Shown here piece after piece: positions 1,836 to 13,587 of a DNA stretch of 64,000 bases (positions are counted from its first letter, which is position 1; the number at the start of each line of letters is the position of its first letter). The notes below the pieces were generated by a model that saw nothing but the letters and a program-made list of their open reading frames with translations, made no database searches and was not told the DNA's origin. The stretch spans positions 3,296,001-3,360,000 of the forward strand of contig OZ242005.1 in the NCBI GenBank assembly GCA_965204725.1, read 5' to 3'. The translations under genes were made by a program, and so were the position numbers. This DNA is from Candidatus Latescibacterota bacterium (GTDB taxonomy: Bacteria > Latescibacterota > UBA2968 > UBA8231).

Positions 1836-3443
1836 GTGGCGCGATTGCAGTGGGGTGGTCTGTTGCCGTTGTGCCTGGCGGCTTGCGCGCCTGCGGACGG
1901 CCCTCCCTTCATCGACAAAGCCGGCGATTGGGGCTTGGAGCGGCCTCATGTCGGCGGCGGCGCACAAAAGCGCTATATCGTCGAAGCCAAAGGCGGCGGG
2001 GCCGCGCTCCTCGACGCGGACTTGGACAGCGACTTGGACATCTACTGGGTCAATGGAGAGGGCGGTGGCAATGCCCTCTACCGCAACGACCAAGGCCGGG
2101 GCTTTGTCGATAGAGCGGTCGCGGCCGGGGTCTCGGGTCGCGGCTGGGGCATGGGTGCGCTGAGCGCGGACTACGATGCCGACGGCGATGCCGATTTGTA
2201 CGTCACGTGCCTGCACGAAAATATCCTCTATCGCAACGACGGGTTCGAGCAATTTGCCGATGCAACGGCCCGCGCCGGGCTGGCGCTGCCGGTGTGGAGT
2301 ACGGGCGCGGCCATGGGCGACGCCGACTTGGACGGCGACTTGGATTTGTACGTGGCCAATTACGCGGATTTTGATTCGGCTGCGGTGCGGCCCTTGGGGA
2401 CGCAGTGGAAGGGCCGGGATGTGTTCGTCGGCCCGCTGGGCTTGCCCGCGCTGCCGGATGTGCTCTACCGCAACGATGGTGCGGGCGTCTTTACCGATGC
2501 GACGGCCGCCAGCGGCCTCGGTCGGCCCGACCCGGGCTATGGGTTTGCCGTACTCTTCATTGACAGCGACGACGACGGCGATTTGGACTTGTATGTCGCC
2601 AACGACTCCACACCCAATTTCCTCTATCGCAACGCCGGCGACGGCACCTTTGTCGAAGTGGGGCTACAGGCCCATGCCGCGCTGGGGGAAACGGGGTTGG
2701 CGCAGGCCGGCATGGGCGCGGCTTGGGGCGATTACGACAACGATGGCGACGGCGACTTGCTGGTCACCAACTTTGAGGACGACTACAACACGCTCTATCG
2801 CAATACCGGCGGCGGCGCTTTTGCGGACGTGAGCTTTGCCGCCGGCTTGGGCCGCATCAGCCTTCCCTACGTGGGGTTTGGCGCGGTCTTTCTCGATTTT
2901 GACAACGACGCCGACCAAGACTTGTTCGTGGCCAACGGGCACGTGTATCCCCAAATCGAACGCCCGGGCAGCGGCGCGACCTACGCGCAAGCCAATCACT
3001 TGTTTGCCAACGACGCCGGTCATTTCCGCCTCGTCGAGCTCGCCCCGAGCGAGCATTGGGCGGTCAGCCGCGGTGCGGTGGCCGGGGATTTTGACGATGA
3101 TGGCCGCTTAGACCTGTTCGTCACCAACCTCAACGGCCGGCCCTCCCTGCTACACAACCAGACGGCCGCGGGCCACCACTGGCTCGGCCTGCGCCTCGTG
3201 GGCGTGGGGAAAAACCGCGAGGCGGTCGGCGCGAAGGTCGTATTGTGGAGCGGCGGTCAAAAGCAGCGGCGGGACGTGCTCTGCGGCGAGAGCTTCTTGG
3301 GCAGCGGCGACCGGCGCGTGCATTTTGGCTTGGGCGCAGCGGGCCGAGCGGATTCGCTGCACATCTACTGGCCGAGTGGTGTGATGCAACGGCTGGTTGG
3401 CTTGCCGATTGATGGGTATGTGCGGGTTGAGGAGGGGGGGTAG
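1836..3443 (+). CDS. CRTAC1-family FG-GAP repeat / ASPIC-UnbV lipoprotein
   Basis: Repeated DxDxDGDxDLYV and LYRNxG motifs; C-terminal ASPIC/UnbV (AVGAKV...HFGLG...WPSG); lipobox LAAC. Confidence 0.92.
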   Translation: MARLQWGGLLPLCLAACAPADGPPFIDKAGDWGLERPHVGGGAQKRYIVEAKGGGAALLDADLDSDLDIYWVNGEGGGNALYRNDQGRGFVDRAVAAGVSGRGWGMGALSADYDADGDADLYVTCLHENILYRNDGFEQFADATARAGLALPVWSTGAAMGDADLDGDLDLYVANYADFDSAAVRPLGTQWKGRDVFVGPLGLPALPDVLYRNDGAGVFTDATAASGLGRPDPGYGFAVLFIDSDDDGDLDLYVANDSTPNFLYRNAGDGTFVEVGLQAHAALGETGLAQAGMGAAWGDYDNDGDGDLLVTNFEDDYNTLYRNTGGGAFADVSFAAGLGRISLPYVGFGAVFLDFDNDADQDLFVANGHVYPQIERPGSGATYAQANHLFANDAGHFRLVELAPSEHWAVSRGAVAGDFDDDGRLDLFVTNLNGRPSLLHNQTAAGHHWLGLRLVGVGKNREAVGAKVVLWSGGQKQRRDVLCGESFLGSGDRRVHFGLGAAGRADSLHIYWPSGVMQRLVGLPIDGYVRVEEGG

Positions 3444-3578: not shown

Positions 3579-6500
3579 ATGAGCAAAGAAATGGATAAAA
3601 TTAGCCCTGATGAAACTAGGCGAGATCCTGATGAAACTAGACGTAAGGTGCTGACTGAGAATACAGCACAGGCGGTCTTCAAACACCTCAACTCTCTGAA
3701 GTCGAAGCGTATGAGTCTGCTCACGCGATGGATTTGGGAGCTCTTGCAGAACGCACGCGACACTTCGACTAACATCGATAGGAAGCTCGTAGCTTCTGTT
3801 GAATACAAGTGGAGAGAAGAGGACGAGTGCGGAGAGCTAATTTTTCAGCATAATGGCCCCAAGTTCAAGGAGGAACAGATAGCCCATCTCATTTACCACG
3901 GCACTACGAAACTCGAGAGCGAGGAGACAATCGGGCAATACGGGAGCGGTTTTCTCACGACTCACCTATTGTCTCCTATAATCAATGTATCTGGTCAACT
4001 CGAAGACGGTCAGTCTTTTCAGTTCTGTCTAAAGCGAGAAGCAGGCTCAGTTGAAGAACTCCGCGATTCAATGGACCAAGCATGGGAAGATTTTAACGAT
4101 TCTCTATCCAAAGAGTTGCCATCGGATGATCGCACTATTTTTCAATATCCTATCGAGGATGGGGCACCAGTTGAGGCCGTTAAAGAAGGACTCGCAACAT
4201 TGAGGACATGTGCTCCTTTCGTAGTAGCCTTTAATAAAAGAATTTTTGCGTATCGACATTCAATCAATTGATGGAAATATGAGTTTTGAGATGAACGAGC
4301 GTTCACCATTGTCTCCAAGTGGACTTTGGCAAGTCAAGGTCTCGGAGAAACAGGACGAAAAGAAACATCATAAAGTATATCTATTGGCAGAAGCAGAGAA
4401 CGAAAAGACGTCTGTTGCTATTCCATTAGAGCCAGTTGGAAATAGCCAAAGATGCTTGCCTATAAATGGTATCCCTAGGCTTTTCTTAGGTTTTCCTTTG
4501 GTAGGTACTGAGGATTTTAGTTTCCCCGCTATCATCAATAGTTTTGAATTTGGGCCGACTGAGGATCGTGATGGCGTGTTCCTAGGAATAGGCAATAACG
4601 AAGTGAATGATAAGAATCAGTCGATCATACAAGAGGCTTGTGAATTGCACATCCGCTTGCTTTTGTTCGCAGCATCGTCCGGCTGGCGTAATACATTCAC
4701 ATTGGCAAAAGTTCCTCGCGTCCGTGAACAGAAGTGGCTGGATGTAGGTTGGCTACAGGATACTCTCAAAGAACAACTCATCGAACAGTTCCGTCAGACT
4801 CCCTCAGTTGTGAGCGAGGTTGGTGACGCGATACCTACAAGCGAATCAATACTGCCAATGGCGGAAAAGGACGAGGGCGTTGAAGCTCTTTGGGATCTGT
4901 TGAATGACTGGAGAAAATTACGCGATATGTTGCCAAGACGGGATGAAGCCGCTGGTTGGTCGCACGCCATAAAGAGTTGGCCGATATACGGCGGAGACGA
5001 CCCTTCCTTGTTCGATGAGACAATGGATGGAGAAAAGTTGGCATCACACATCGATGGTGGTTATGGTAATATTGATACGCTTCAAGCGTTGTTTTATGAA
5101 GATATTTTCGCAGTCGACTGGCTGGATCAATTTCACCAGTTTCTCAACGAAAACAGCTTACAAGAAACAGTACGCGATCATCATATTGTTCTTGATCAAA
5201 AGCGTTATCTTAGCACATTGAGTGATCTGCATCGCGATCGAGGCATTTCTGAGAAACTGAAGGACATTGCGGAATTGCTCGAATGGGAGATCAGACAGAA
5301 ACTCCGTCATGTAGAGCTCTCTTCTTTGGCTGGTGAAAAGGGTGCTGGAGACATGCAAAATGAAGAAGTAGTTAAAAGACTAATAGAAGAGTTACAGGAA
5401 CGTGCTGAGCAGAACCCAGACGATGACTTCGCCAAAGCGAGTGTGGATCTTTTCTCGTGGATTGTTGTCGAAAAAGACTGGGATCGACTACGTAGATTTC
5501 CAGTGTTCGCAGAAAATGCTGACTCTGACAAGCGAAAAGTTATTTATCTGGAGCGTACAGAAGAGAAAGACGATCTTCCGCTTGCCCCTATTTTAGCATG
5601 GCCAAAAGACTTACAACAGTACTCCCAGCTTTTTCCGAAGAGTTATATATTGTCTGAACGTTTCTTCGAGGTCGCATCTGGTGAAGAAGTATGGCAGATT
5701 TTGGAAGAGAAATATTTTCTCAAAAAAGATGTGATAATTACTAAGAAATTAGAACTTGATTTTAAGACATTCCTCCCTGATGATCCCCTGACCGAGGAAG
5801 AGGATCACAAAACTGATGAGCGTGTTGATGTGACTAATATCGCTTTCCTGACTGAAGATAATATTGGGATCATGGATCGGGTGCGTCAAAGCCAGCATCT
5901 TGCCCGTCTATTTTGGCGTTTTCTTACTGAATGGATGGTAGTTCATGATACTAGCGGACTAGAAATTGCGGAAGCATCTTGCGACTGCGGAGAGAGTCAT
6001 GATTATTTCCCAGCAGAGTGGCTATTGCCCTTGGTACGGAGACGGTGGGTTCCTTTGGGAGAACGTAAACAAGACAGGGCGACAGCGAAATCTCTTGGCA
6101 GGCTGCTCCGTAATGTAGATGGGGAAACAAAGTCTTTTCATGAAAATCAAGCATTATTGAAGGCTATTGACGTGAGGCGTTCCGACTTGATGCTTGAGAC
6201 TTTTGCTAAGGATGCTGAAGCTCGGGAGGCTTTAGAAGATACAGTTACGGAGATATTGGCTACTACTGAAGGGGACTTGAGCCTAGTCCAAATATTTCTT
6301 GAACAGTACCGAGAAAAAAGACGTATGGGGCGTGAAAACCAACGCTTGGGGCAACGAGTAGAAGGCTTGGTGAGGAAAAATCTAGAAAGCAAAGGTTTTA
6401 CCGTCGATCTTACCGGCACTGGATCGGACTTTGAAATTTCGGCTGAAAATGGAGATGTGGCAAACTTGGATATATCTCTAGGAGATAGAGATTGGCTTAT

Positions 6501-6885
6501 TGAGATAAAAGCTACTCGGCACCAAGAAGTCCGAATGACTCATATTCAGGCGAAAACTTCCGTAAAAGAAGGAGACAGATTCTTACTCTGCGTCGTACCC
6601 GTAGAAGATGGGAACACTGAGCTAGAATTAGATGTCGTTCAAGATGCTATGCGATTCGTACAAGGTATTGGCTCCCGCGTAGCCTCACTGTGTAAAGACA
6701 TCGAAGATCTTGAGAGTTTACGAGACAATATCACAACTAGTCGATCTTCAGGTCTCCAGCTAGAGGTTGAAGCAGGGAAAGCACGGATCCGCGTTGCTAA
6801 TTCTGTGTGGGAAAACGACGGATTTCGACTCGAAGACCTCGCCGAGCGGTTGGCTCAGTCAGGTAACTCTCCCCAAAGTACGTAG
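3579..6885 (+). pseudogene. Sacsin/NOV-like GHKL ATPase fused to a C-terminal DUF3883-like PD-(D/E)XK nuclease, split by a +1 frameshift at about 4236-4239 (ORFs 3579-4271 and 4246-6885)
   Basis: GHKL motifs WELLQNARD, FQHNG, GQYGSGF in ORF1. ORF2 has PRLFLGFPLVGTEDF and ends GSDFEI..LIEIKAT..VRMT. Removing one A from taaaag gives the continuous reading AFNKEFLRIDI (about 1101 aa). Could be a real lesion or an assembly error. Confidence 0.8.
3606..3640 (+). repeat. 21-nt-period tandem duplication (cctgatgaaactag x2) encoding PDETRR-D-PDETRR
   Basis: Copies at 3606-3619 and 3627-3640. Confidence 0.85.
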
Positions 6886-7091
6886 GAGGCCTCTTATGCA
6901 GAGCTATCCAGAGTACGACGGAACAAGAAGTATTGTCTTGAAGTGGTCCCAAAACTCAGGATTCGGTCGGTTATGTGCAGAAAAAGCGTTGGATCAGAAG
7001 CGTCTCGCCCTATGAAAATGCCCAACGCGGCTGCGGCCCGACGCTAGTTATGAAGCCACTTCAAGGCAAAGTACGCGGATGAGATAGGTTC

Positions 7092-7781
7092 GTGAGCGAC
7101 GATTTCTTTAAGTTCCCTTCAACGCCATACTTGGCACTCCTCGGCGATGCCGATGTCAGGGATGATAAGGTCATGACGGCAGCCGAGCGGAATGAATTTC
7201 TGTGCCATGAGTTGGTAATCGAAGAAAAAGTCGATGGGGCAAATCTCGGCATTTCGTTTGATTCCGACGGAAATATACGCGCCCAAAATCGGGGCATGTA
7301 CTTGGAGCTTCCCCGGCCGGGACAATGGAAAAAGCTCTCGGAGTGGTTGACTCCGAGAACAGAGACTTTTTTTGAACATCTATTTGACCGTTACATCCTT
7401 TTTGGGGAATGGTGCTATGCTAGGCACACGGTCTTCTACGACCGGCTACCGGACTGGTTCCTCGGTTTCGATGTCTATGATAGGGAAACGGACCGATTTT
7501 TATCTTGCGACCGACGCAATGAGCTTTTTCGCACTATTCGCATTTGTCCCGTCCCGACCGTCAGACGCGGTTGCTTCACGTTCTCAGAACTGAGCGAATT
7601 TCTATTGCAATCAATGATCGGCGATCATCCCGCAGAAGGCATTTATCTCCGGTCTGATCGCAGTGGCTGGTTGGTTCAGAGAGCCAAGTTGGTTCGTCCC
7701 GCCTTTGTTCAGTCAATAGAGCAGCACTGGTCTCGTAAGGACATTGAGCCCAATCGGTTGAAGTGGGAGGTTTGGACATGA
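7092..7781 (+). CDS. ATP-dependent RNA ligase family protein (Rnl2-like nucleotidyltransferase domain)
   Basis: Motif I EEKVDGAN, RAQNRG, LFGEWC, FLGFDVYD, EGIYLR, RAKLVR. Confidence 0.88.
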   Translation: MSDDFFKFPSTPYLALLGDADVRDDKVMTAAERNEFLCHELVIEEKVDGANLGISFDSDGNIRAQNRGMYLELPRPGQWKKLSEWLTPRTETFFEHLFDRYILFGEWCYARHTVFYDRLPDWFLGFDVYDRETDRFLSCDRRNELFRTIRICPVPTVRRGCFTFSELSEFLLQSMIGDHPAEGIYLRSDRSGWLVQRAKLVRPAFVQSIEQHWSRKDIEPNRLKWEVWT

Positions 7782-7787
7782 GTACAT

Positions 7788-7862
7788 CCCGGCTAGCGGC
7801 TCAGTGCCCCGCGATGTTGTCGTCCATTTTGAGGGGGTGCCCTATTGAACCATCCAAGAAAT
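7788..7862 (+). repeat. 75-bp direct repeat Y, copy A; its first ~43 bp match the 3' end of the DUF4159 gene
   Basis: 66/75 identical, ungapped, to 8810-8884 by manual alignment. 7793-7835 matches 10731-10777 with a 4-nt gap and 2 mismatches. Confidence 0.9.
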
Positions 7863-7897
7863 ATGTCGGCATCGCAATAGACGTTCCGCATATAGAT

Positions 7898-8671
7898 TCA
7901 CTCAGTGAGAATACCCAGCACATCGCGCCAGGATGGCAATTCGTCTTTTGGGCGCAGTACTCTAAATTCTTCAACCGTGATATTGACCGGCGCACCATCG
8001 CGCCGATACAGAATAGGCCCTGAAACCGACACGCGCCGGTCCGTCTTAGGATCGAAGGACTGTAGCACGTCGTCCCACAATTCAATGGGAAAATAGCAGT
8101 TGATGTTGCGGCCCGATATATCGTCGTTAATGGAAAAGCGCGTCTTGCCTCGTCTGCTAAGTACTCGAATTCGTCCTTCGACCGTACCGTGATCAACATA
8201 CTGTCCTTGCAGTAACCGATCGACAGACGCAACAGATCGAGACGACATTTTAGTAGCCTGTCCATTGTATCGGATCTGTACCGTACTCAACTCCCCCTCG
8301 GACTTGGATAGCACTTCACCCATCGCCTTGGCAGCCGCCAACGCCTTTTCCGAAAAATGCTCAGGCCAGACATCATCCCTTACTTCGAGGGACCCGAGTC
8401 CGGCTTGAATCGCATGAATGGCCACAGGGATGTGTTCGGGGGGTATCTTGTTTGCTTCTGGAGCGATGTGCATGCACACGCTACCCGACTCAACGGAAAG
8501 AAGCCACTCTACAGCGTGCGGCTTTCCGGCCACGCTATTGGCGACCTCATCGGCCATCTGCAAGAACGCGTTAAAGCCTTTCCTAAAACGCTGGGCCGTA
8601 ATCCGCGGACCGTCAATCTCAAACGTGAGCGAATGTATTGGCGAGAATTTGGCCATGGTTGTAGGGTCCAA
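7898..8671 (-). CDS. Hypothetical protein (257 aa), probable C-terminal OB-like domain
   Basis: Open ORF with plausible composition. GTVEGRI..F.I.D..SG..I.C.F..RVSVSG.I.Y...G.P..I.VE pattern resembles a family I recall beside PIN toxins (unverified). Start may be the ATG at 8656. Confidence 0.7.
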   Translation of the reverse strand: MDPTTMAKFSPIHSLTFEIDGPRITAQRFRKGFNAFLQMADEVANSVAGKPHAVEWLLSVESGSVCMHIAPEANKIPPEHIPVAIHAIQAGLGSLEVRDDVWPEHFSEKALAAAKAMGEVLSKSEGELSTVQIRYNGQATKMSSRSVASVDRLLQGQYVDHGTVEGRIRVLSRRGKTRFSINDDISGRNINCYFPIELWDDVLQSFDPKTDRRVSVSGPILYRRDGAPVNITVEEFRVLRPKDELPSWRDVLGILTE

Positions 8672-8763
8672 GTTCTAGTTCCGGTTCACAAAGGGGATTG
8701 GCAAAGTAATATCCCTGTATCACAGAATCAAGCCCATTGGCCCTCGGCCTCGCTTGGCTCGAC

Positions 8764-8952
8764 CCTCCGCAAGGCCCTCGTGCTGGCGTTGTGGATGTAT
8801 CGCGTACTGCCCGGCTAGCCGCTCAGTACCCCGCGATGTTGGCACCCATTTTGAGGAGGTTCCCTGTCGAACCATCCAAGAAATCCTCCGCAAGAGCCTC
8901 GCTGGAGTGTGCTTGGTTCTCGTGCTAACGCTTTGGTTGTATCGCTTGCTGC
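8764..8952 (+). repeat. Second repeat pair X: 8764-8810 and 8885-8952
   Basis: cctccgcaag at 8764 and 8885; 34-bp blocks 8777-8810 and 8919-8952 are 27/34 identical; copy 2 has 21 extra nt between the blocks. Confidence 0.75.
8810..8884 (+). repeat. 75-bp direct repeat Y, copy B
   Basis: cccggctagc...ccatccaagaaat; partner of 7788-7862. Confidence 0.9.
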
Positions 8953-8965
8953 GTTGCGGGGGCTG

Positions 8966-8994
8966 TTGACGGCGGCAGGACCATCGGACATGTT
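8966..8994 (+). promoter_or_regulatory. Putative sigma70-type promoter, probably the original promoter of the MNT-like/HEPN pair, now separated from it by IS5
   Basis: TTGACG-N17-CATGTT immediately left of the IS; the -10 match is weak. Confidence 0.4.
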
Positions 8995-8995
8995 A

Positions 8996-9926
8996 AGAGG
9001 CTGTCTGAAAACCCATTATGTAGTCGTATTTGAATCGGCGTACTCATCAGGCCATATTCAGGTTTCACCACAAAATCTGAACAGAAAGGCTCGTATGATG
9101 AGTACGCCCAGTGGCCAATATGCAACCGATGTAACCGATGTGCAATGGCAGCAGATCGAACCGTTGCTGCCGGCTCCGCGGTGGCGCCCCAACGGTCCGG
9201 GTCGGCCGCCGCGGGATCGGCGTCCGATCGTCAACGGGCTTTTGTATCTGAACAAGACGGGGTGTCCTTGGGCGTTGTTACCGGCTTGTTTTGGCCCGTG
9301 GAAAACGGTGTATGATTACTTCCGTCGCTGGAGCCGGCACGGGGTCTGGCCGCGGGTGTTGGAACGGCTCACCCAGCAGGAACGCCGCCGCAACGGCCGG
9401 CCGGCCACGCCCTCGGCGGGCTGTATCGATAGTCAGACCATCAAAACGGCAACCCATGGTAAAACAACCGGTTACGACGCGGGCAAGAAGGTTCAAGGCC
9501 GAAAACGGCATCTGCTGGTCGACGCCTCAGGCTTGCTTCGACAGGTGGTGGTCACCGCCGCCGATGTATCCGATCGAGACGGCTTGCAGCAGGTGTTGAC
9601 CCGCTTGGGGACGTCCGGCGTAGCCCGGTTACGCAAACTGTGGGGCGATGGCGGCTATCGAGGCGAGGCGATCCGAACATGGGTGGCCAACCTAAAAAAG
9701 ACGCACAAGATTGACTTGGAAGTCGTCGCCAAACAAGGCCCCGGATTTACCGTACTCAAACGCCGTTGGGTCGTCGAGCGTACCTTGGCATGGGTGATGA
9801 ACTCGCGCCGTCATGCCCGAGATTATGAGGTGTTGACCCGCCATAGCGAAGCCTTGATCCAGATTGCTATGATCCACCTGTTACTCAAAAGAATCAAATA
9901 GAAAATGGAGTTTTCAGACAGCCTCT
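8996..9926 (+). mobile_element. Complete IS5-family insertion sequence (IS1031/IS427-like)
   Basis: 17-bp perfect terminal inverted repeats AGAGGCTGTCTGAAAAC (8996-9012) and GTTTTCAGACAGCCTCT (9910-9926); TA on both flanks. Confidence 0.95.
9095..9901 (+). CDS. IS5-family DDE transposase
   Basis: YATDVTDVQW, GCPWALLP, WKTVYDYFRRW, IDSQTIK, GYDAGKKVQGRKRH, DGGY, RWVVERTLAW. Confidence 0.96.
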   Translation: MMSTPSGQYATDVTDVQWQQIEPLLPAPRWRPNGPGRPPRDRRPIVNGLLYLNKTGCPWALLPACFGPWKTVYDYFRRWSRHGVWPRVLERLTQQERRRNGRPATPSAGCIDSQTIKTATHGKTTGYDAGKKVQGRKRHLLVDASGLLRQVVVTAADVSDRDGLQQVLTRLGTSGVARLRKLWGDGGYRGEAIRTWVANLKKTHKIDLEVVAKQGPGFTVLKRRWVVERTLAWVMNSRRHARDYEVLTRHSEALIQIAMIHLLLKRIK

Positions 9927-9957
9927 TAGTAACAGAACGCAGACGCGGAGGACGACA

Positions 9958-10275
9958 ATGCCGGAAGTCACTCAGCAGCAATTGAATGACGCGAAGCACG
10001 TGGTCGAAACCACGTTGGGCGAGCAATTCGACGACATTGACTTCGTGATGGTCTCCGTCCTGCCCGACGTAGAAGAGTGGGACGACGATGACGACGAATT
10101 TATTGAAGTCAAGGCGATCTACGACGGAGTTGCCGGGCAATTGCGCGGTGAGCGGATGGTCGGGGTGATTCCTCTGCTGCGGCGACGCCTACTGGAATCG
10201 GGCGTCACCGCGTTCCCTGTCATGCGCTACATCGCAAAATCCGACTGGGACGAGCGTCCCAGTGACGCCACATGA
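9958..10275 (+). CDS. Small acidic protein, putative degenerate MNT-like antitoxin partner of HEPN
   Basis: GGAGG RBS; overlaps the HEPN start; acidic beta-alpha-beta pattern, but no canonical GS-x-DxD motif. Confidence 0.6.
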   Translation: MPEVTQQQLNDAKHVVETTLGEQFDDIDFVMVSVLPDVEEWDDDDDEFIEVKAIYDGVAGQLRGERMVGVIPLLRRRLLESGVTAFPVMRYIAKSDWDERPSDAT

Positions 10276-10734
10276 CCTCGTTGCTGCCGCGCAAGACTTA
10301 GTCGGCGACGGCAAAGGTGCTCCACGGCAGGCGAATCTTCGCCGGGCGATCAGCACGGCTTACTACGCTCTATTCCATTGCTTGGCGGGATGTTGCGCCG
10401 ATGCCCTAGTAGGAACTGCCAGAGCCAATCGAAGCGAACCCGCATGGCGTCAAGCCTATCGCGCCCTAGAACACCGCGACGCCGCTAAGCGGTGCGAACA
10501 GAACCAAATTCAGCACTTTCCGTCAGAAATTCAGGAATTTGCCGGGTCGTTCGTGGATATGCAGCGAAAACGCCATCGAGCGGATTACGCATCTGAAGGG
10601 CATTGGCTGAAGTCCGAAGTAGCGGACGATATAGCCCAAGCGGCCGCGGCTATCGCGTACTTGAACGTGCGCCGCTAAAGGATCGTCGCGCATTTGCTGT
10701 TTATGTCTTGCTTAGGCTCAGACCGTCGCGCTAG
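10262..10734 (+). pseudogene. HEPN-domain toxin with a 1-nt frameshift near 10661 (current stop 10678; restored stop 10734)
   Basis: RRAISTAYYALFH and RHRADY HEPN motifs. The alternative frame continues ERAPLKDRRAFAVYVLLRLRPSR* to the TAG at 10732-10734. Confidence 0.75.
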
Positions 10735-11390
10735 CGGCTCAGTGCCCAGACCGCGATGTTGGCGCCCATTTTGAGGGCGTCGAGGCGCTTGCTCTCTGGG
10801 TCGTTGTGGACGCCGGGGTCCTCCCAGCCATCGCCTAAGTCCGCTTCATAAGTGTACAGCACGGCGAGGCGTTCGCCTGCGAAGAGCGCGAGGGCTTGTG
10901 GTCGTTTGCCGTCGTGCTCGTGGACTTTGGGCAGGCCCGCTGGCAACGCAAAGTGACAGCGGAACAGGGGATGTTCGGGCGGCAGCTCGACCCACTCGGC
11001 GTTGGGAAAAACTTGGCGCATGGCGCGGCGAAAGCTCTCGTCCATGCCGTAGTTGTCGTCGGCGTGGAGAAAGCCGCCGCTTTCCAAGTAGTGCCTGAGC
11101 CGCGCCACCTCCTCAGCAGAAAAAGCGACATTGCCGTGCCCGGTCATGTAGATGTACGGGTAGGAAAACAACTCCTCGTCCATGATTTGCACCCGCGCCT
11201 CGGCTTCGGCCGCGTCGATTTGGGTATGCTCCCGCAAGAAGCGAAGCAAGTTGGGCAGGGAAGAGGGATCGCTGTACCAGTCGCCGCCGCCGCCGTATTG
11301 CAGCCGCGCAATGGTAAATAGGGGCTGGGCCGAGCCATCCACCGCGAGGAGCGCGATGGCGAGCGCGGCGTACAGAACGAGGCCGCGCAT
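10731..11390 (-). CDS. DUF4159 domain protein
   Basis: ARLQYGGGGDWY, YMTGHG, GGFLHADDNYG, DLGDGWED, MGANI; signal peptide from the ATG at 11390. Confidence 0.92.
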   Translation of the reverse strand: MRGLVLYAALAIALLAVDGSAQPLFTIARLQYGGGGDWYSDPSSLPNLLRFLREHTQIDAAEAEARVQIMDEELFSYPYIYMTGHGNVAFSAEEVARLRHYLESGGFLHADDNYGMDESFRRAMRQVFPNAEWVELPPEHPLFRCHFALPAGLPKVHEHDGKRPQALALFAGERLAVLYTYEADLGDGWEDPGVHNDPESKRLDALKMGANIAVWALSR

Positions 11391-11391
11391 G

Positions 11392-13587
11392 TCAGGGGTT
11401 GTTGATGACGGCGAATTTGCCGCGCACGAGGTCGCCGGTTTCTGCCTGCGCGACGAAGTAGTAAATACCCGACCCCGCGAGAAAGCCGGCCGCGCTCTGG
11501 CCGTTCCAAGTGACCGCGCCCTCGCCAGCCGCGCCCTCGAGAACCCGGACGAGTTCGCCGGCCGCAGTGAAGATGCGGACGCTGGCCCCAAGCGGCAGGT
11601 CGGCAAAGGTTAGGGACGCGCCGCGGTCGCCGAGGTGGAAGGGGTTGGGATACGCATACGCCTGAGGCCCAACGGTCGTCCCCGAGCCCCCGAGTTGCAG
11701 GCGGCTCATGCCGGCGAGCGTACCAATCCACAGCGCGCCGTTTTCCCGGTCGAAGTAGAGCGAGTTGACGCGGTTGTTGACGAGGCCGTCGCTGGCGTCG
11801 AGCGCGAACTCGACTTGGCCCTCGGTGTCGATGCGGGCCAAGCCGCCTTCGGTGCCGACCCAGATCCGCCCCCAGTCGTCTTCGGCCAGCGCCGTAGTCG
11901 CGGTGGCGGGCAGGCCGTTGTCGGTGTTGTACACCTTCCAGCTCGCGACCTCAAAATCCGCGTTGGCGCGCGAGTACTCGCCGCGCACGGCATTGAGGCC
12001 GTTGTTCGTGGCGACCCACACCCGCCCCGAGCGATCGACGTGAATGTCGCTGATGGTATCGCTCGTCAGGTCTGGGTACGCGACCGTGTCGAAGACCAAG
12101 CCGGTCTCGTCGCCGATCGCAAAGGGAGTGCCGCCGTCGTCTAAGAGGAAGAAACCGTCGAGTGCCGTCCCGATCCACTTCAGGCCGTCGGGACCGATGG
12201 CGATCTTGGTCATGTCTTGGCCCGGGGACATGCCAAAGTCCAACTGGCTGTTGAGCGCGGCCTGTTGGGGCGGCCATCCATCCATGACGACGAGTCCGTT
12301 GCGGACGTTGGCGATCCACAGCAAGCCGTTGGCGTCGCGGTCCATGTCGCTGATGGCGACAAAGGAGTCGCCGTCGATGCCTTCGAGAGCCGAGTTGCTG
12401 GCGTTGAGGTTTTGCCACTGGCCGTCGGCGTCGCGCACGTCAATGCCCCAACCCCAACTTCCGACCCACAGCAGGCCCTCGGCGTCGGTCTCCACGGCCG
12501 AGACTTTCTCGGACGACAGGTTGGCCCGGCTGGTGTGGGTAGTCCAGCCCTCGCCATCGAACTCGTACAGGCCAAAAGCGGGCAGATTGTCCTTGGGCAC
12601 GGAGGCGACCCAGAGGTGACCGTCGGAGGTCTGAGTTATGTCGAAGAAGAAATTGCCGATCGGCTCGCGGGGCGGCGGCGGCGGGGTGGTGCCGAGGGCG
12701 CGCAGGCCGCGCTCGCTAGCCACCCACAGCGGGCCGTCGGTATCCGATAGGTCGGCGGCGGTGCTGATACCGCTGATCGGTTGCCAGCGGTTGTCTCTGC
12801 GCTGGAGGAGGCCCTCGGCCGTCGCACTGACGATGAGTCCCTCAAAGAGGCCGAGGGCAACGATGCTGGTCGTGGAGGGATCGAGCGCGGGCCGGTCGAG
12901 CGCGGGATGGACTTGCCAGAGCCCGTCCGTGGCTGAGACGAAGAGCGTGTCTTGATGGACGAGCACGTCGCGCACCTCGCCCCTTATGGGCTCGGCCTCC
13001 CAACTGCTGGGGTCTTGGAGGTTGGGCTGGTCCAAATCCGCCGACACGAGGCCATTGACGGTCCCGACCCACAGCCGATCGGCAAATATCTCAATGCTGG
13101 TCACCTCGGTGTCTCTCGCCAGATTCCCCAAGCGGCGATAGGTCTCCTTGACCTCCTCCTTGCTGATGACAAACGCACTGACGCCGCGCTCGCTGCCCAC
13201 GTAGAGGATGTCCCCATGGGGCTTGAGGGCGTTGATGCGGAGGTTTTGGAAGTCGAGAAAGGGCGGGTCGAAGCGGTTTTGCTCGGGCCGATAGCGGCTC
13301 AAGCCTTGGGAGTGCGTACCAAACCACAGGTGGTCGTTGGCATCTACGGATAGGCTCAAGATGAGGTTGCCCGGCAGGCCATCGCGGCGGGTGAAGCGCG
13401 TATAGGCTTGGGTCTGTTGGTCGTAGCGCAGGACGCCGCCGTGCGTACCGGCCCAGACGGCGTCTTGGTGGACGAGGACCCGGTTGATTTGGCGCATACT
13501 GGTATAGGCTTCCCATTGGGTGCCGGATAGCTGGGCGCGGGCGGGTAGAGCCAAAAGCAGCAGGGAAGCAAGGGGGAGCAAGAGCAT
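11392..13587 (-). CDS. PorZ-like beta-propeller (two-component regulator propeller repeats) with T9SS/FlgD-type C-terminal domain
   Basis: Signal peptide; repeated D..G.LWxGT..GL blades; C-terminal YPNPF..IFTAAGELVR..WNG..GSGIYYF..KFAVIN. Confidence 0.8.
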   Translation of the reverse strand: MLLLPLASLLLLALPARAQLSGTQWEAYTSMRQINRVLVHQDAVWAGTHGGVLRYDQQTQAYTRFTRRDGLPGNLILSLSVDANDHLWFGTHSQGLSRYRPEQNRFDPPFLDFQNLRINALKPHGDILYVGSERGVSAFVISKEEVKETYRRLGNLARDTEVTSIEIFADRLWVGTVNGLVSADLDQPNLQDPSSWEAEPIRGEVRDVLVHQDTLFVSATDGLWQVHPALDRPALDPSTTSIVALGLFEGLIVSATAEGLLQRRDNRWQPISGISTAADLSDTDGPLWVASERGLRALGTTPPPPPREPIGNFFFDITQTSDGHLWVASVPKDNLPAFGLYEFDGEGWTTHTSRANLSSEKVSAVETDAEGLLWVGSWGWGIDVRDADGQWQNLNASNSALEGIDGDSFVAISDMDRDANGLLWIANVRNGLVVMDGWPPQQAALNSQLDFGMSPGQDMTKIAIGPDGLKWIGTALDGFFLLDDGGTPFAIGDETGLVFDTVAYPDLTSDTISDIHVDRSGRVWVATNNGLNAVRGEYSRANADFEVASWKVYNTDNGLPATATTALAEDDWGRIWVGTEGGLARIDTEGQVEFALDASDGLVNNRVNSLYFDRENGALWIGTLAGMSRLQLGGSGTTVGPQAYAYPNPFHLGDRGASLTFADLPLGASVRIFTAAGELVRVLEGAAGEGAVTWNGQSAAGFLAGSGIYYFVAQAETGDLVRGKFAVINNP

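Follow-up and report, generated by a model that had tools for sequence, protein, structure and literature searches.

Repeated segments around the P257 gene

The stretch of DNA analyzed here, hereafter the window, covers 64,000 nucleotides (nt) of contig OZ242005.1 of a Candidatus Latescibacterota bacterium (assembly GCA_965204725.1, genome G000). It carries two tandem repeat units, each composed of a segment Y and a segment X, and a gene encoding a protein of 257 amino acids (aa), named P257, which lies between Y and X in unit 1; in unit 2, Y and X adjoin. This "filled" and "empty" appearance had been taken, in the original prediction, as the sign of a site-specific, cassette-like capture of a gene into a repeat, or of a precise deletion of cargo from unit 2. 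From the identity of the repeated pieces and their arrangement in relatives, we consider it probable that the structure is what remains of a defense hotspot that was repeated in tandem and then decayed, and not a gene-capture device. From left to right, the locus contains a TmtA homologue, a DUF4234 trace, an RNA ligase gene, Y1, a PIN stub, P257, X1, Y2, another PIN stub, X2, an insertion sequence (IS), the P105-P138 module and a DUF4159 gene.

Y1 (7782-7862) and Y2 (8804-8884) share 86% identity over 81 nt with a spacing of 1022 nt, a similarity far above chance (E 3.7e-21 in a search over the entire 5.4-Mb genome). X1 (8764-8780) and X2 (8885-8901) have in common a 17-nt seed at 88% identity, beyond which they can be aligned only with gaps, X2 being longer by about 21-24 nt. 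Both Y1 and Y2 terminate in ccatccaagaaat, which is followed by atgtcgg at the junction between 7862 and 7863 and by cctccgcaag at the junction between 8884 and 8885; at 8763/8764, the sequence reads ctcgac followed by cctccgcaag. The latter word, which abuts Y2 in unit 2, is thus first met in unit 1 at 8764, i.e., 901 bp after the end of Y1. All the words and coordinates originally given for the repeats read as quoted. The 901 bp had been described as carrying only the 257-aa gene. The gene is indeed there, together with the beginning of a PIN gene (7863-7891), the conserved region upstream of P257 (8672-8733) and 30 nt of a DUF2752 remnant (8734-8763). A third and shorter copy, Y3 (10730-10776), had been overlooked and corresponds to the actual 3' terminus of the DUF4159 gene. 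According to a whole-genome search, Y is present in three copies and X in two, with none elsewhere.

Origin of the Y and X segments

Each Y consists of the terminal ~47-57 nt of DUF4159 fused to the early codons (first ~17) of a PIN toxin gene. The Y1 core (7792-7838, minus strand) corresponds to an orphaned end of DUF4159, i.e., its last ~15 codons and its stop, and is followed by PIN stub 1 (7843-7891, minus strand), which covers codons 1-16/17 (88% with residues 1-16 of PIN by tblastn). Together they read as a 32-aa fusion open reading frame (ORF), MRNVYCDADIFLGWFN joined to RAPPQNGRQHRGALSR and a stop. The Y2 core (8811-8856, minus strand) is a second orphaned 3' end of DUF4159, adjoining the shorter PIN stub 2 (8857-8884, minus strand; about codons 10-18, translated as ...FLGWFDRE). 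The three Y sites share GCTAGCGGCTCAGTGCC(CAGA)CCGCGATGTTGGCGCCCATTTTGAGG, which represents the last ~15 codons and the stop of DUF4159, and a 4-nt deletion inside this stretch is common to Y1 and Y2. As for X, X1 extends over 8734-8809 (plus strand) and is a remnant of a DUF2752 3' end with internal deletions, its final TAG being common to Y2, and X2 (8885-8951, plus strand) is a DUF2752 3' end (aa 106-127, 77% by tblastn) that runs on into the leader of the P105 module. The Y-X "unit" would therefore be a mosaic of a DUF4159 tail, a PIN start and a DUF2752 end, as read from these matches.

These assignments were examined in the genus, i.e., in 31 genomes including G000 and hence 30 others, with module maps drawn for 20 relatives and two metagenome contigs (L080 and L081). 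The region 8744-8960 used as query matched 26 of the 30 other genomes, and the DUF4159 orthologue carried a match to the Y core at its 3' end in all the relatives' loci compared (28/28, tblastn). X1 and the Y core (query positions 30/37-113) form one unbroken stretch in 11 of the 30 relatives, at the place where the convergent stop codons of DUF2752 and DUF4159 meet. The convergent plus-strand gene of these relatives is indeed a DUF2752 gene (PF10825, 3.3e-19), preceded by a DUF4234 gene. By blastn, 8773-8856 matches the DUF2752 and DUF4159 ends of G023 at 81.8%, and 8885-8998 matches G021, G010, G012 and G027 at 82-90%. The right part of Y (the "arm") is contiguous with 7863-7897 in six relatives (G004, G009, G019, G023, G027 and G029), where both belong to the start of a PIN-domain gene that immediately follows the 257-aa gene on the minus strand; this PIN gene is intact in G023 (PF01850, 1.9e-15). 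As a whole, 7061-12000 splits into blocks that are each contiguous in some relative, namely 7061-7838 (G012), 7843-8733 and 8773-8856 (G023), then 8885-8998 and 9932-12000 (G021, G010 and G027).

The two insertion points proposed for the captured gene do not withstand this comparison. The left one, at 7862/7863, is internal to sequence contiguous in the six relatives, and the "filled" unit therefore appears to be the native PIN-P257...DUF2752 arrangement. On the right, X1 does not start at 8764 and reaches 30 nt further left, to about 8734, the true boundaries of the P257 block being 7843 and 8733. The joint between Y and PIN occurs twice in G000 and is absent from the genus's 30 other genomes; it must therefore have arisen a single time and been copied afterwards. 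Since Y1 and Y2 share both this joint and the 4-nt deletion, one is a copy of the other. No other cargo was found at the Y/X junction in the genus relatives.

Organization of the locus in relatives

Judging from its gene content across the genus, the locus is a hypervariable hotspot for defense and toxin-antitoxin genes, flanked by core genes. In the window, the G+C content is 42-56% between the ASPIC/UnbV and DUF4159 genes vs. 61-69% in the flanks, and the known defense content comprises the TmtA match and the PIN toxins. The ASPIC/UnbV gene stands beside the hotspot in 18 of the 20 mapped relatives, among which the hotspot content takes at least ten different states. At one extreme, the two core genes, ASPIC and DUF4159, abut stop to stop (G006). 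Other relatives hold DUF4234-DUF2752 alone, PIN-P257 alone or PIN-P257-DUF4234-DUF2752 (G009 and G023), whereas G010 contains TmtA-DUF4234-DUF2752-P105-P138 and G012 contains DUF4234-DUF2752-P105...RNA ligase; in several relatives, pieces of these modules are present. A scan of metagenomes for P257 yielded two loci (L080/L081, 85% identity), which display PIN stub-P257-DUF4234-DUF2752-P105...RNA ligase in one line, neither of them with Y duplicates.

The usual order is PIN, P257, DUF4234, DUF2752, P105-P138 and then DUF4159, and it is constant across relatives. The window breaks this common order only if the locus is taken to be one copy: if it is divided into three copies, each delimited by a DUF4159 tail, every copy has the same order as the relatives and L080/L081.

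Besides, the stop codons of DUF2752 and DUF4159 stand back to back with no spacer in many relatives (L022-L035), as does the stop of ASPIC in G006, so that the right edge of every hotspot variant is exactly the DUF4159 stop. On the other flank, in G001 (L050, 14101-15300 in window orientation) and in L080/L081, a pair made of a vapC gene (140 aa) and a vapB-like gene (86 aa) lies between the intact 3' end of ASPIC and a diverged duplicate of it. This duplicate corresponds to the last ~95-138 nt of ASPIC, a tail duplication of the same type.

Tandem copies of the hotspot in genome G027

In G027 (L064, 11500-17500), the hotspot unit occurs three times in tandem. DUF4159 and part of a neighboring gene are found twice (95.9% identity over 1423 nt). 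The first copy ends in a joint connecting a 731-aa gene (window-equivalent 12744) to ASPIC (2925), i.e., a duplication joint, and a 52-nt ASPIC fragment (2960-3010) is located between an internal shortened Y and a PIN stub. At the junction between the DUF2752 end and Y, G027 has allele-specific bases in common with X1-Y2 of G000. In the third copy, traces of P257 persist between the PIN stub and X2, which implies that a deletion with different endpoints removed P257 from this copy. The second DUF4159 copy of G027 is full-length, and a P138 fragment abuts it.

Reads and near-identical strains

Run X10, from the source organism, contained all the sampled words. A single Logan contig of this run (26,062 nt) reproduces 6800-9020 with 0 differences, at an even depth of 116, and a 214-nt contig of run X1 (sponge metagenome) covers 8759-8972 with 0 differences. 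The repeat is not a misassembly: the idea that misjoined reads created it is contradicted by a separate short-read assembly of X10 and by an X1 contig, which both match the window exactly, and its probability is practically nil.

Near-identical strains (sponge metagenome, marine metagenome and "organism B") are devoid of the IS (8995 to 9928) and of most of P138 (10296 to 10710), and display small deletions of 127, 156, 413 and 521 bp. The 127-bp deletion (7785 to 7913) takes the last four codons of P257. Because these codons are conserved in the family consensus, this deletion is secondary. In run X5, one 1995-nt contig harbors both the 127- and 156-bp deletions, and both internal Y copies are consequently gone. 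Apart from those of the IS and of P138, the joints in these strains connect 7785 to 7913, 8786 to 8943 and 8801 to 10733; runs X1 and X12 also contain a variant in which 7813 and 7845 are separated by 536 other letters, and which may carry a complete PIN gene. In addition, the 413-bp deletion of 10296-10710, i.e., most of P138, was seen in contigs of X1, X5 and X12, and the 521-bp deletion inside P257 (8269 to 8791) in X12. Excised or empty alleles had been proposed as a check of the capture. Neither the 901-bp joint (7862 to 8764) nor the 1022-bp joint (Y1 x Y2) was found in the contigs of X10, X1, X12 and X5; as contigs drop rare variants, which can thereby escape detection, this does not count as evidence of absence.

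Searches for recombinases and structured elements

The original prediction had noticed no terminal repeats, target duplication or recombinase, and repeat, Pfam and genome-wide recombinase-family searches agree with it. A Pfam scan of the six large ORFs of the island revealed no tyrosine or serine recombinase. Genome-wide, only three PF00589 matches were obtained, the nearest at C1:3165752, ~130 kb from the locus, and there was no PF00239 match; the cognate recombinase suggested as a check is thus absent from the island. None was found among the mapped modules of the 20 relatives' loci either, not every ORF of those loci having been scanned. The Rfam scan of 6500-10500 gave no match at E<=1.

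When single-strand DNA folds were computed for Y, X+Y and Y+X on both strands, five of the six were no better than shuffles (z of -0.16 and -1.08 for Y1, -0.62 and -0.71 for Y2+X2). The sixth, X1+Y2 (8764-8884, plus strand), folds better than all 200 shuffles (z -3.18). Its hairpin centers on the GGCTAGCC palindrome, at the point where the two stop codons meet, and the hairpin words are absent, by eye, at the same junction of G023.

Probable decay of a tandemly repeated hotspot

The scenario that we regard as probable would proceed as follows. The hotspot, with at least the DUF4159 3' end, would have been tandemly repeated to give three copies through recombination anchored on DUF4159, i.e., a segmental duplication and then unequal crossing-over, and each copy would afterwards have been eroded by different deletions. 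Copy 1 would have retained TmtA, the DUF4234 trace, the RNA ligase gene and a DUF4159 tail (Y1); copy 2 the PIN stub, P257, the DUF2752 remnant (X1) and a second DUF4159 tail (Y2); and copy 3 the shorter PIN stub, the DUF2752 3' end (X2), P105-P138 and the live DUF4159. The "empty" unit 2 would then be a copy similar to unit 1 that underwent a deletion starting at about PIN codon 10 and ending 75 nt short of the DUF2752 stop, a loss of about 1.95 kb relative to the intact arrangement of G023. The second option of the original prediction, a deletion of cargo from unit 2, is thereby retained in its principle and not in its precise or site-specific character, since the deletion has one end within a PIN codon and the other within DUF2752, and no microhomology, i.e., no shared endpoint bases, was seen by eye at the joint. 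The processes at work (hotspot turnover, duplication, deletion and displacement) are all known, and the locus is a new example of them rather than a new capture system. What the pieces are, how they adjoin in relatives, that the joints are unique, and that G027 has three tandem copies with a duplication joint are all shown directly, whereas for G000 itself we infer the order of events and the source of the extra copies, be it the same genome or another strain.

Several observations weigh against this scenario. Y1 and Y2 differ by ~13%, as much as G000 and G027 do nearby (6-12%), which is awkward for a recent duplication in G000 and fits copies with different strains as their source. G000 has kept no duplication joint linking the 731-aa gene to ASPIC, so that the tandem origin rests on G027 and on the module order. 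The presence of the Y-to-PIN joint in two copies requires an extra duplication step. Finally, vapBC between duplicated ASPIC 3' ends (G001, L080/L081) also resembles an insertion with duplication of the target end.

Alternative explanations

The same anatomy could result from the sequential displacement of the locus by foreign alleles, each anchored in homologous DUF4159 and closed by an illegitimate joint (homology-facilitated illegitimate recombination), or later by the short Y homology, the old tails being pushed outward. This explanation differs from the decay of a tandem repetition only in the source of the extra copies. We hold it to be unlikely, yet worth serious attention. The copies are ~13% apart, like between-species distances, although the pieces are too short for a tree; the orphaned tails Y2 and Y1 lie downstream of the live DUF4159 (minus strand); the PIN toxin is cut to 16-18 codons and its upstream partner P257 is retained; and ASPIC 3'-end duplicates bracket vapBC in G001 and L080/L081. 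Such a mechanism has also been proposed for type VI secretion system (T6SS) arrays of Vibrio cholerae and for Rhs loci (PMC5361080). However, the joints of G027 hold left-flank ASPIC sequence twice, with starts within 35 nt of each other, for which the re-amplification of a single duplicated unit is simpler, and an identical illegitimate joint present twice in G000 cannot correspond to two independent events. Moreover, the same source places such recombination at frequencies orders of magnitude below those of ordinary homologous recombination (PMC5361080). In a further reading that we find somewhat less credible still, the fusion of the DUF4159 tail with the PIN stub would act as a portable homology arm: alleles carrying it would insert before any DUF4159 tail by homologous recombination, and modules would stack in tandem instead of being swapped. 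If this were true, defense islands could grow with no recombinase, and vapBC between ASPIC-tail duplicates would offer another example of this at the opposite flank.

Explanations that involve a dedicated recombinase fare worse. Integrative islands are classically recognized by direct repeats of the 3' end of their target gene, and the three copies of the DUF4159 tail, as well as the G+C content of the island, lower than that of its flanks, could be understood if integrase-bearing elements had repeatedly entered the DUF4159 3' end, each bringing a replacement end, Y1 and Y2 being old attachment-site scars and the integrases having been lost. Such a history has little chance of being correct, given the lack of recombinase in the island and among the mapped modules of the relatives, the distance to the nearest PF00589 match and the lack of PF00239 in the genome. 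Besides, the Y core adjoins the interior of the PIN reading frame and not the end of an element, and duplication joints of core genes are kept in G027. Lastly, Y-X as a dedicated recombination site that captures and excises single genes, in the manner of integron cassettes, would account for the match between the two units, which extends up to identical words at either edge of the 901 bp, and for a hotspot that holds different genes in different genomes. We nevertheless deem it very improbable: Y and X are what is left of three ordinary genes, the left junction falls inside native contiguous sequence, X1 extends 30 nt past the right junction, and the joints are unique to G000 among the 31 genomes. 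Furthermore, there is no integrase and no Rfam match, Y folds like shuffles in five of six folds, and the four runs contain no 901-bp or 1022-bp joint in their contigs. The decay of a tandemly repeated hotspot is therefore preferred, and the value of this result is mainly negative: the appearance of filled and empty cassettes can come from ordinary duplication of gene ends followed by deletion, and relatives resolve it. On the positive side, a clear hotspot for defense and toxin-antitoxin genes emerges in a sponge- and marine-associated genus, with scars that record the stacking of modules.

The P257 family and the other genes of the hotspot

This work also reveals a widespread and unnamed family of ~250 aa that travels with a PIN nuclease. 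P257 (7898-8671, minus strand) belongs to this uncharacterized family, normally directly upstream of a PIN gene, and had no match in Pfam, PADLOC or NCBIfam. Its upstream region (8672-8733, minus strand) is conserved, the whole of 7843-8733 being contiguous with G023, G009, G019 and L080 at 86-88%. Its close relatives are few (20), and a profile search returned 1792 cluster representatives of about 245-255 aa; in the ESM Atlas, only unnamed clusters were found. In six of eight further loci, other genera included, the PIN gene directly follows the gene of the P257 family, mostly with a 4-nt overlap. This arrangement suggests that P257-PIN is a two-gene toxin-partner module in which P257 may be the putative partner or antidote of the PIN toxin; here, P257 is an orphan, its PIN gene having been destroyed. 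In a VapBC-type pair, the gene just before that of the PIN toxin would encode an antitoxin that is small and binds DNA, but P257 has 257 aa and matches no antitoxin family. Twelve distant relatives compared with Pfam yielded only sub-threshold matches, one of them to an OB-fold domain (E 0.016). In the predicted structure (mean predicted local distance difference test score, pLDDT, of 77), the C-terminal half had only weak OB-fold matches by Foldseek, the best being ExoVII (E 6.4e-4, TM 0.23). The modeled likeness to an OB-fold is thus a weak lead and not an assignment.

On the left, the conserved flank is the ASPIC/UnbV FG-GAP gene (1836-3443, plus strand; PF13517 and PF07593). It is followed by the homologue of TmtA, of the Tiamat defense system (3579-6885, plus strand; PADLOC PDLC03967), which is read in two frames, 3579-4271 and 4246-6885, matching model positions 4-211 (1.1e-58) and 214-1057 (3.5e-121), respectively. 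The TmtA orthologue of G010 is a single frame, and the overlapping split seen here represents a frameshifted pseudogene or a sequencing error. The DUF4234 start trace (MQSYPEYDG..., 6885-6940, plus strand) was recognized by blastn against the DUF4234 starts of G023 and G012 (76-78%), the G023 gene matching DUF4234 in Pfam. The RNA ligase gene (7092-7781, plus strand; PF09414, 1.7e-30) comes next, and 7061-7838 is contiguous with the RNA ligase gene and DUF4159 3' end of G012 (86.6% over 782 nt). To the right of X2 lies an IS5-family insertion sequence (8996-9927, plus strand) with a DDE transposase and perfect 19-nt terminal inverted repeats. The genome contains seven identical copies, along with five relatives at 68%. 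In runs X1, X5 and X12 it is missing and leaves an exactly empty site, indicating a recent insertion upstream of P105. P105 and P138 (9958-10678, plus strand) overlap by 14 nt and form a two-gene module that adjoins DUF4159 in G010, G021, G027 and G028; neither has a family in Pfam, PADLOC or NCBIfam, and they possibly represent another two-gene toxin-antitoxin or defense module. The live DUF4159 gene (10731-11606, minus strand; PF13709, 3.6e-69) constitutes the right conserved flank, and its 3' end (10730-10780) is Y3.

Comparison with known systems

The locus recalls integron cassettes (attC/IntI) in that single genes seem to sit between short repeats. Here, however, there is neither IntI, nor an attC-type hairpin, nor a shared recombination point, and the repeats are coding remnants. 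The locus also resembles defense hotspots flanked by core genes. In the examples of PMC10250203 and PMC10121019, as here, a fixed site between conserved core genes receives defense or toxin-antitoxin modules that differ among genomes, which in the present case are TmtA, RNA ligase, PIN-P257, vapBC and P105-P138. Relative to these same examples, the present hotspot belongs to a different bacterial group, a sponge- and marine-associated genus, and shows visible scars of module stacking.

The orphan arrays of T6SS effector-immunity genes in Vibrio cholerae and of Rhs C-terminal tips have been proposed to form by displacement (PMC5361080). These arrays and the present locus have in common a conserved gene followed by a string of its own orphaned 3' parts, a truncated toxin whose partner is kept, the lack of an integrase and a recombination anchored in the conserved gene. 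In contrast with these arrays, DUF4159 is not a toxin with a variable tip, the orphan pieces measure only ~50 nt, and G027 shows whole-locus tandem copies that include the opposite flank. Tandem segmental duplication or amplification followed by reductive deletion belongs to general bacterial genetics. In line with it are the novel end-to-start joint of G027, which is not retained in G000, the further unit copies, and the progressive deletion of redundant parts with the gene order kept within copies. Unlike the usual outcome of this process, the divergence between copies is unusually high (about 13% in G000 and 4% in G027) and different defense modules are found in them, so that the net result is a longer island rather than plain redundancy.

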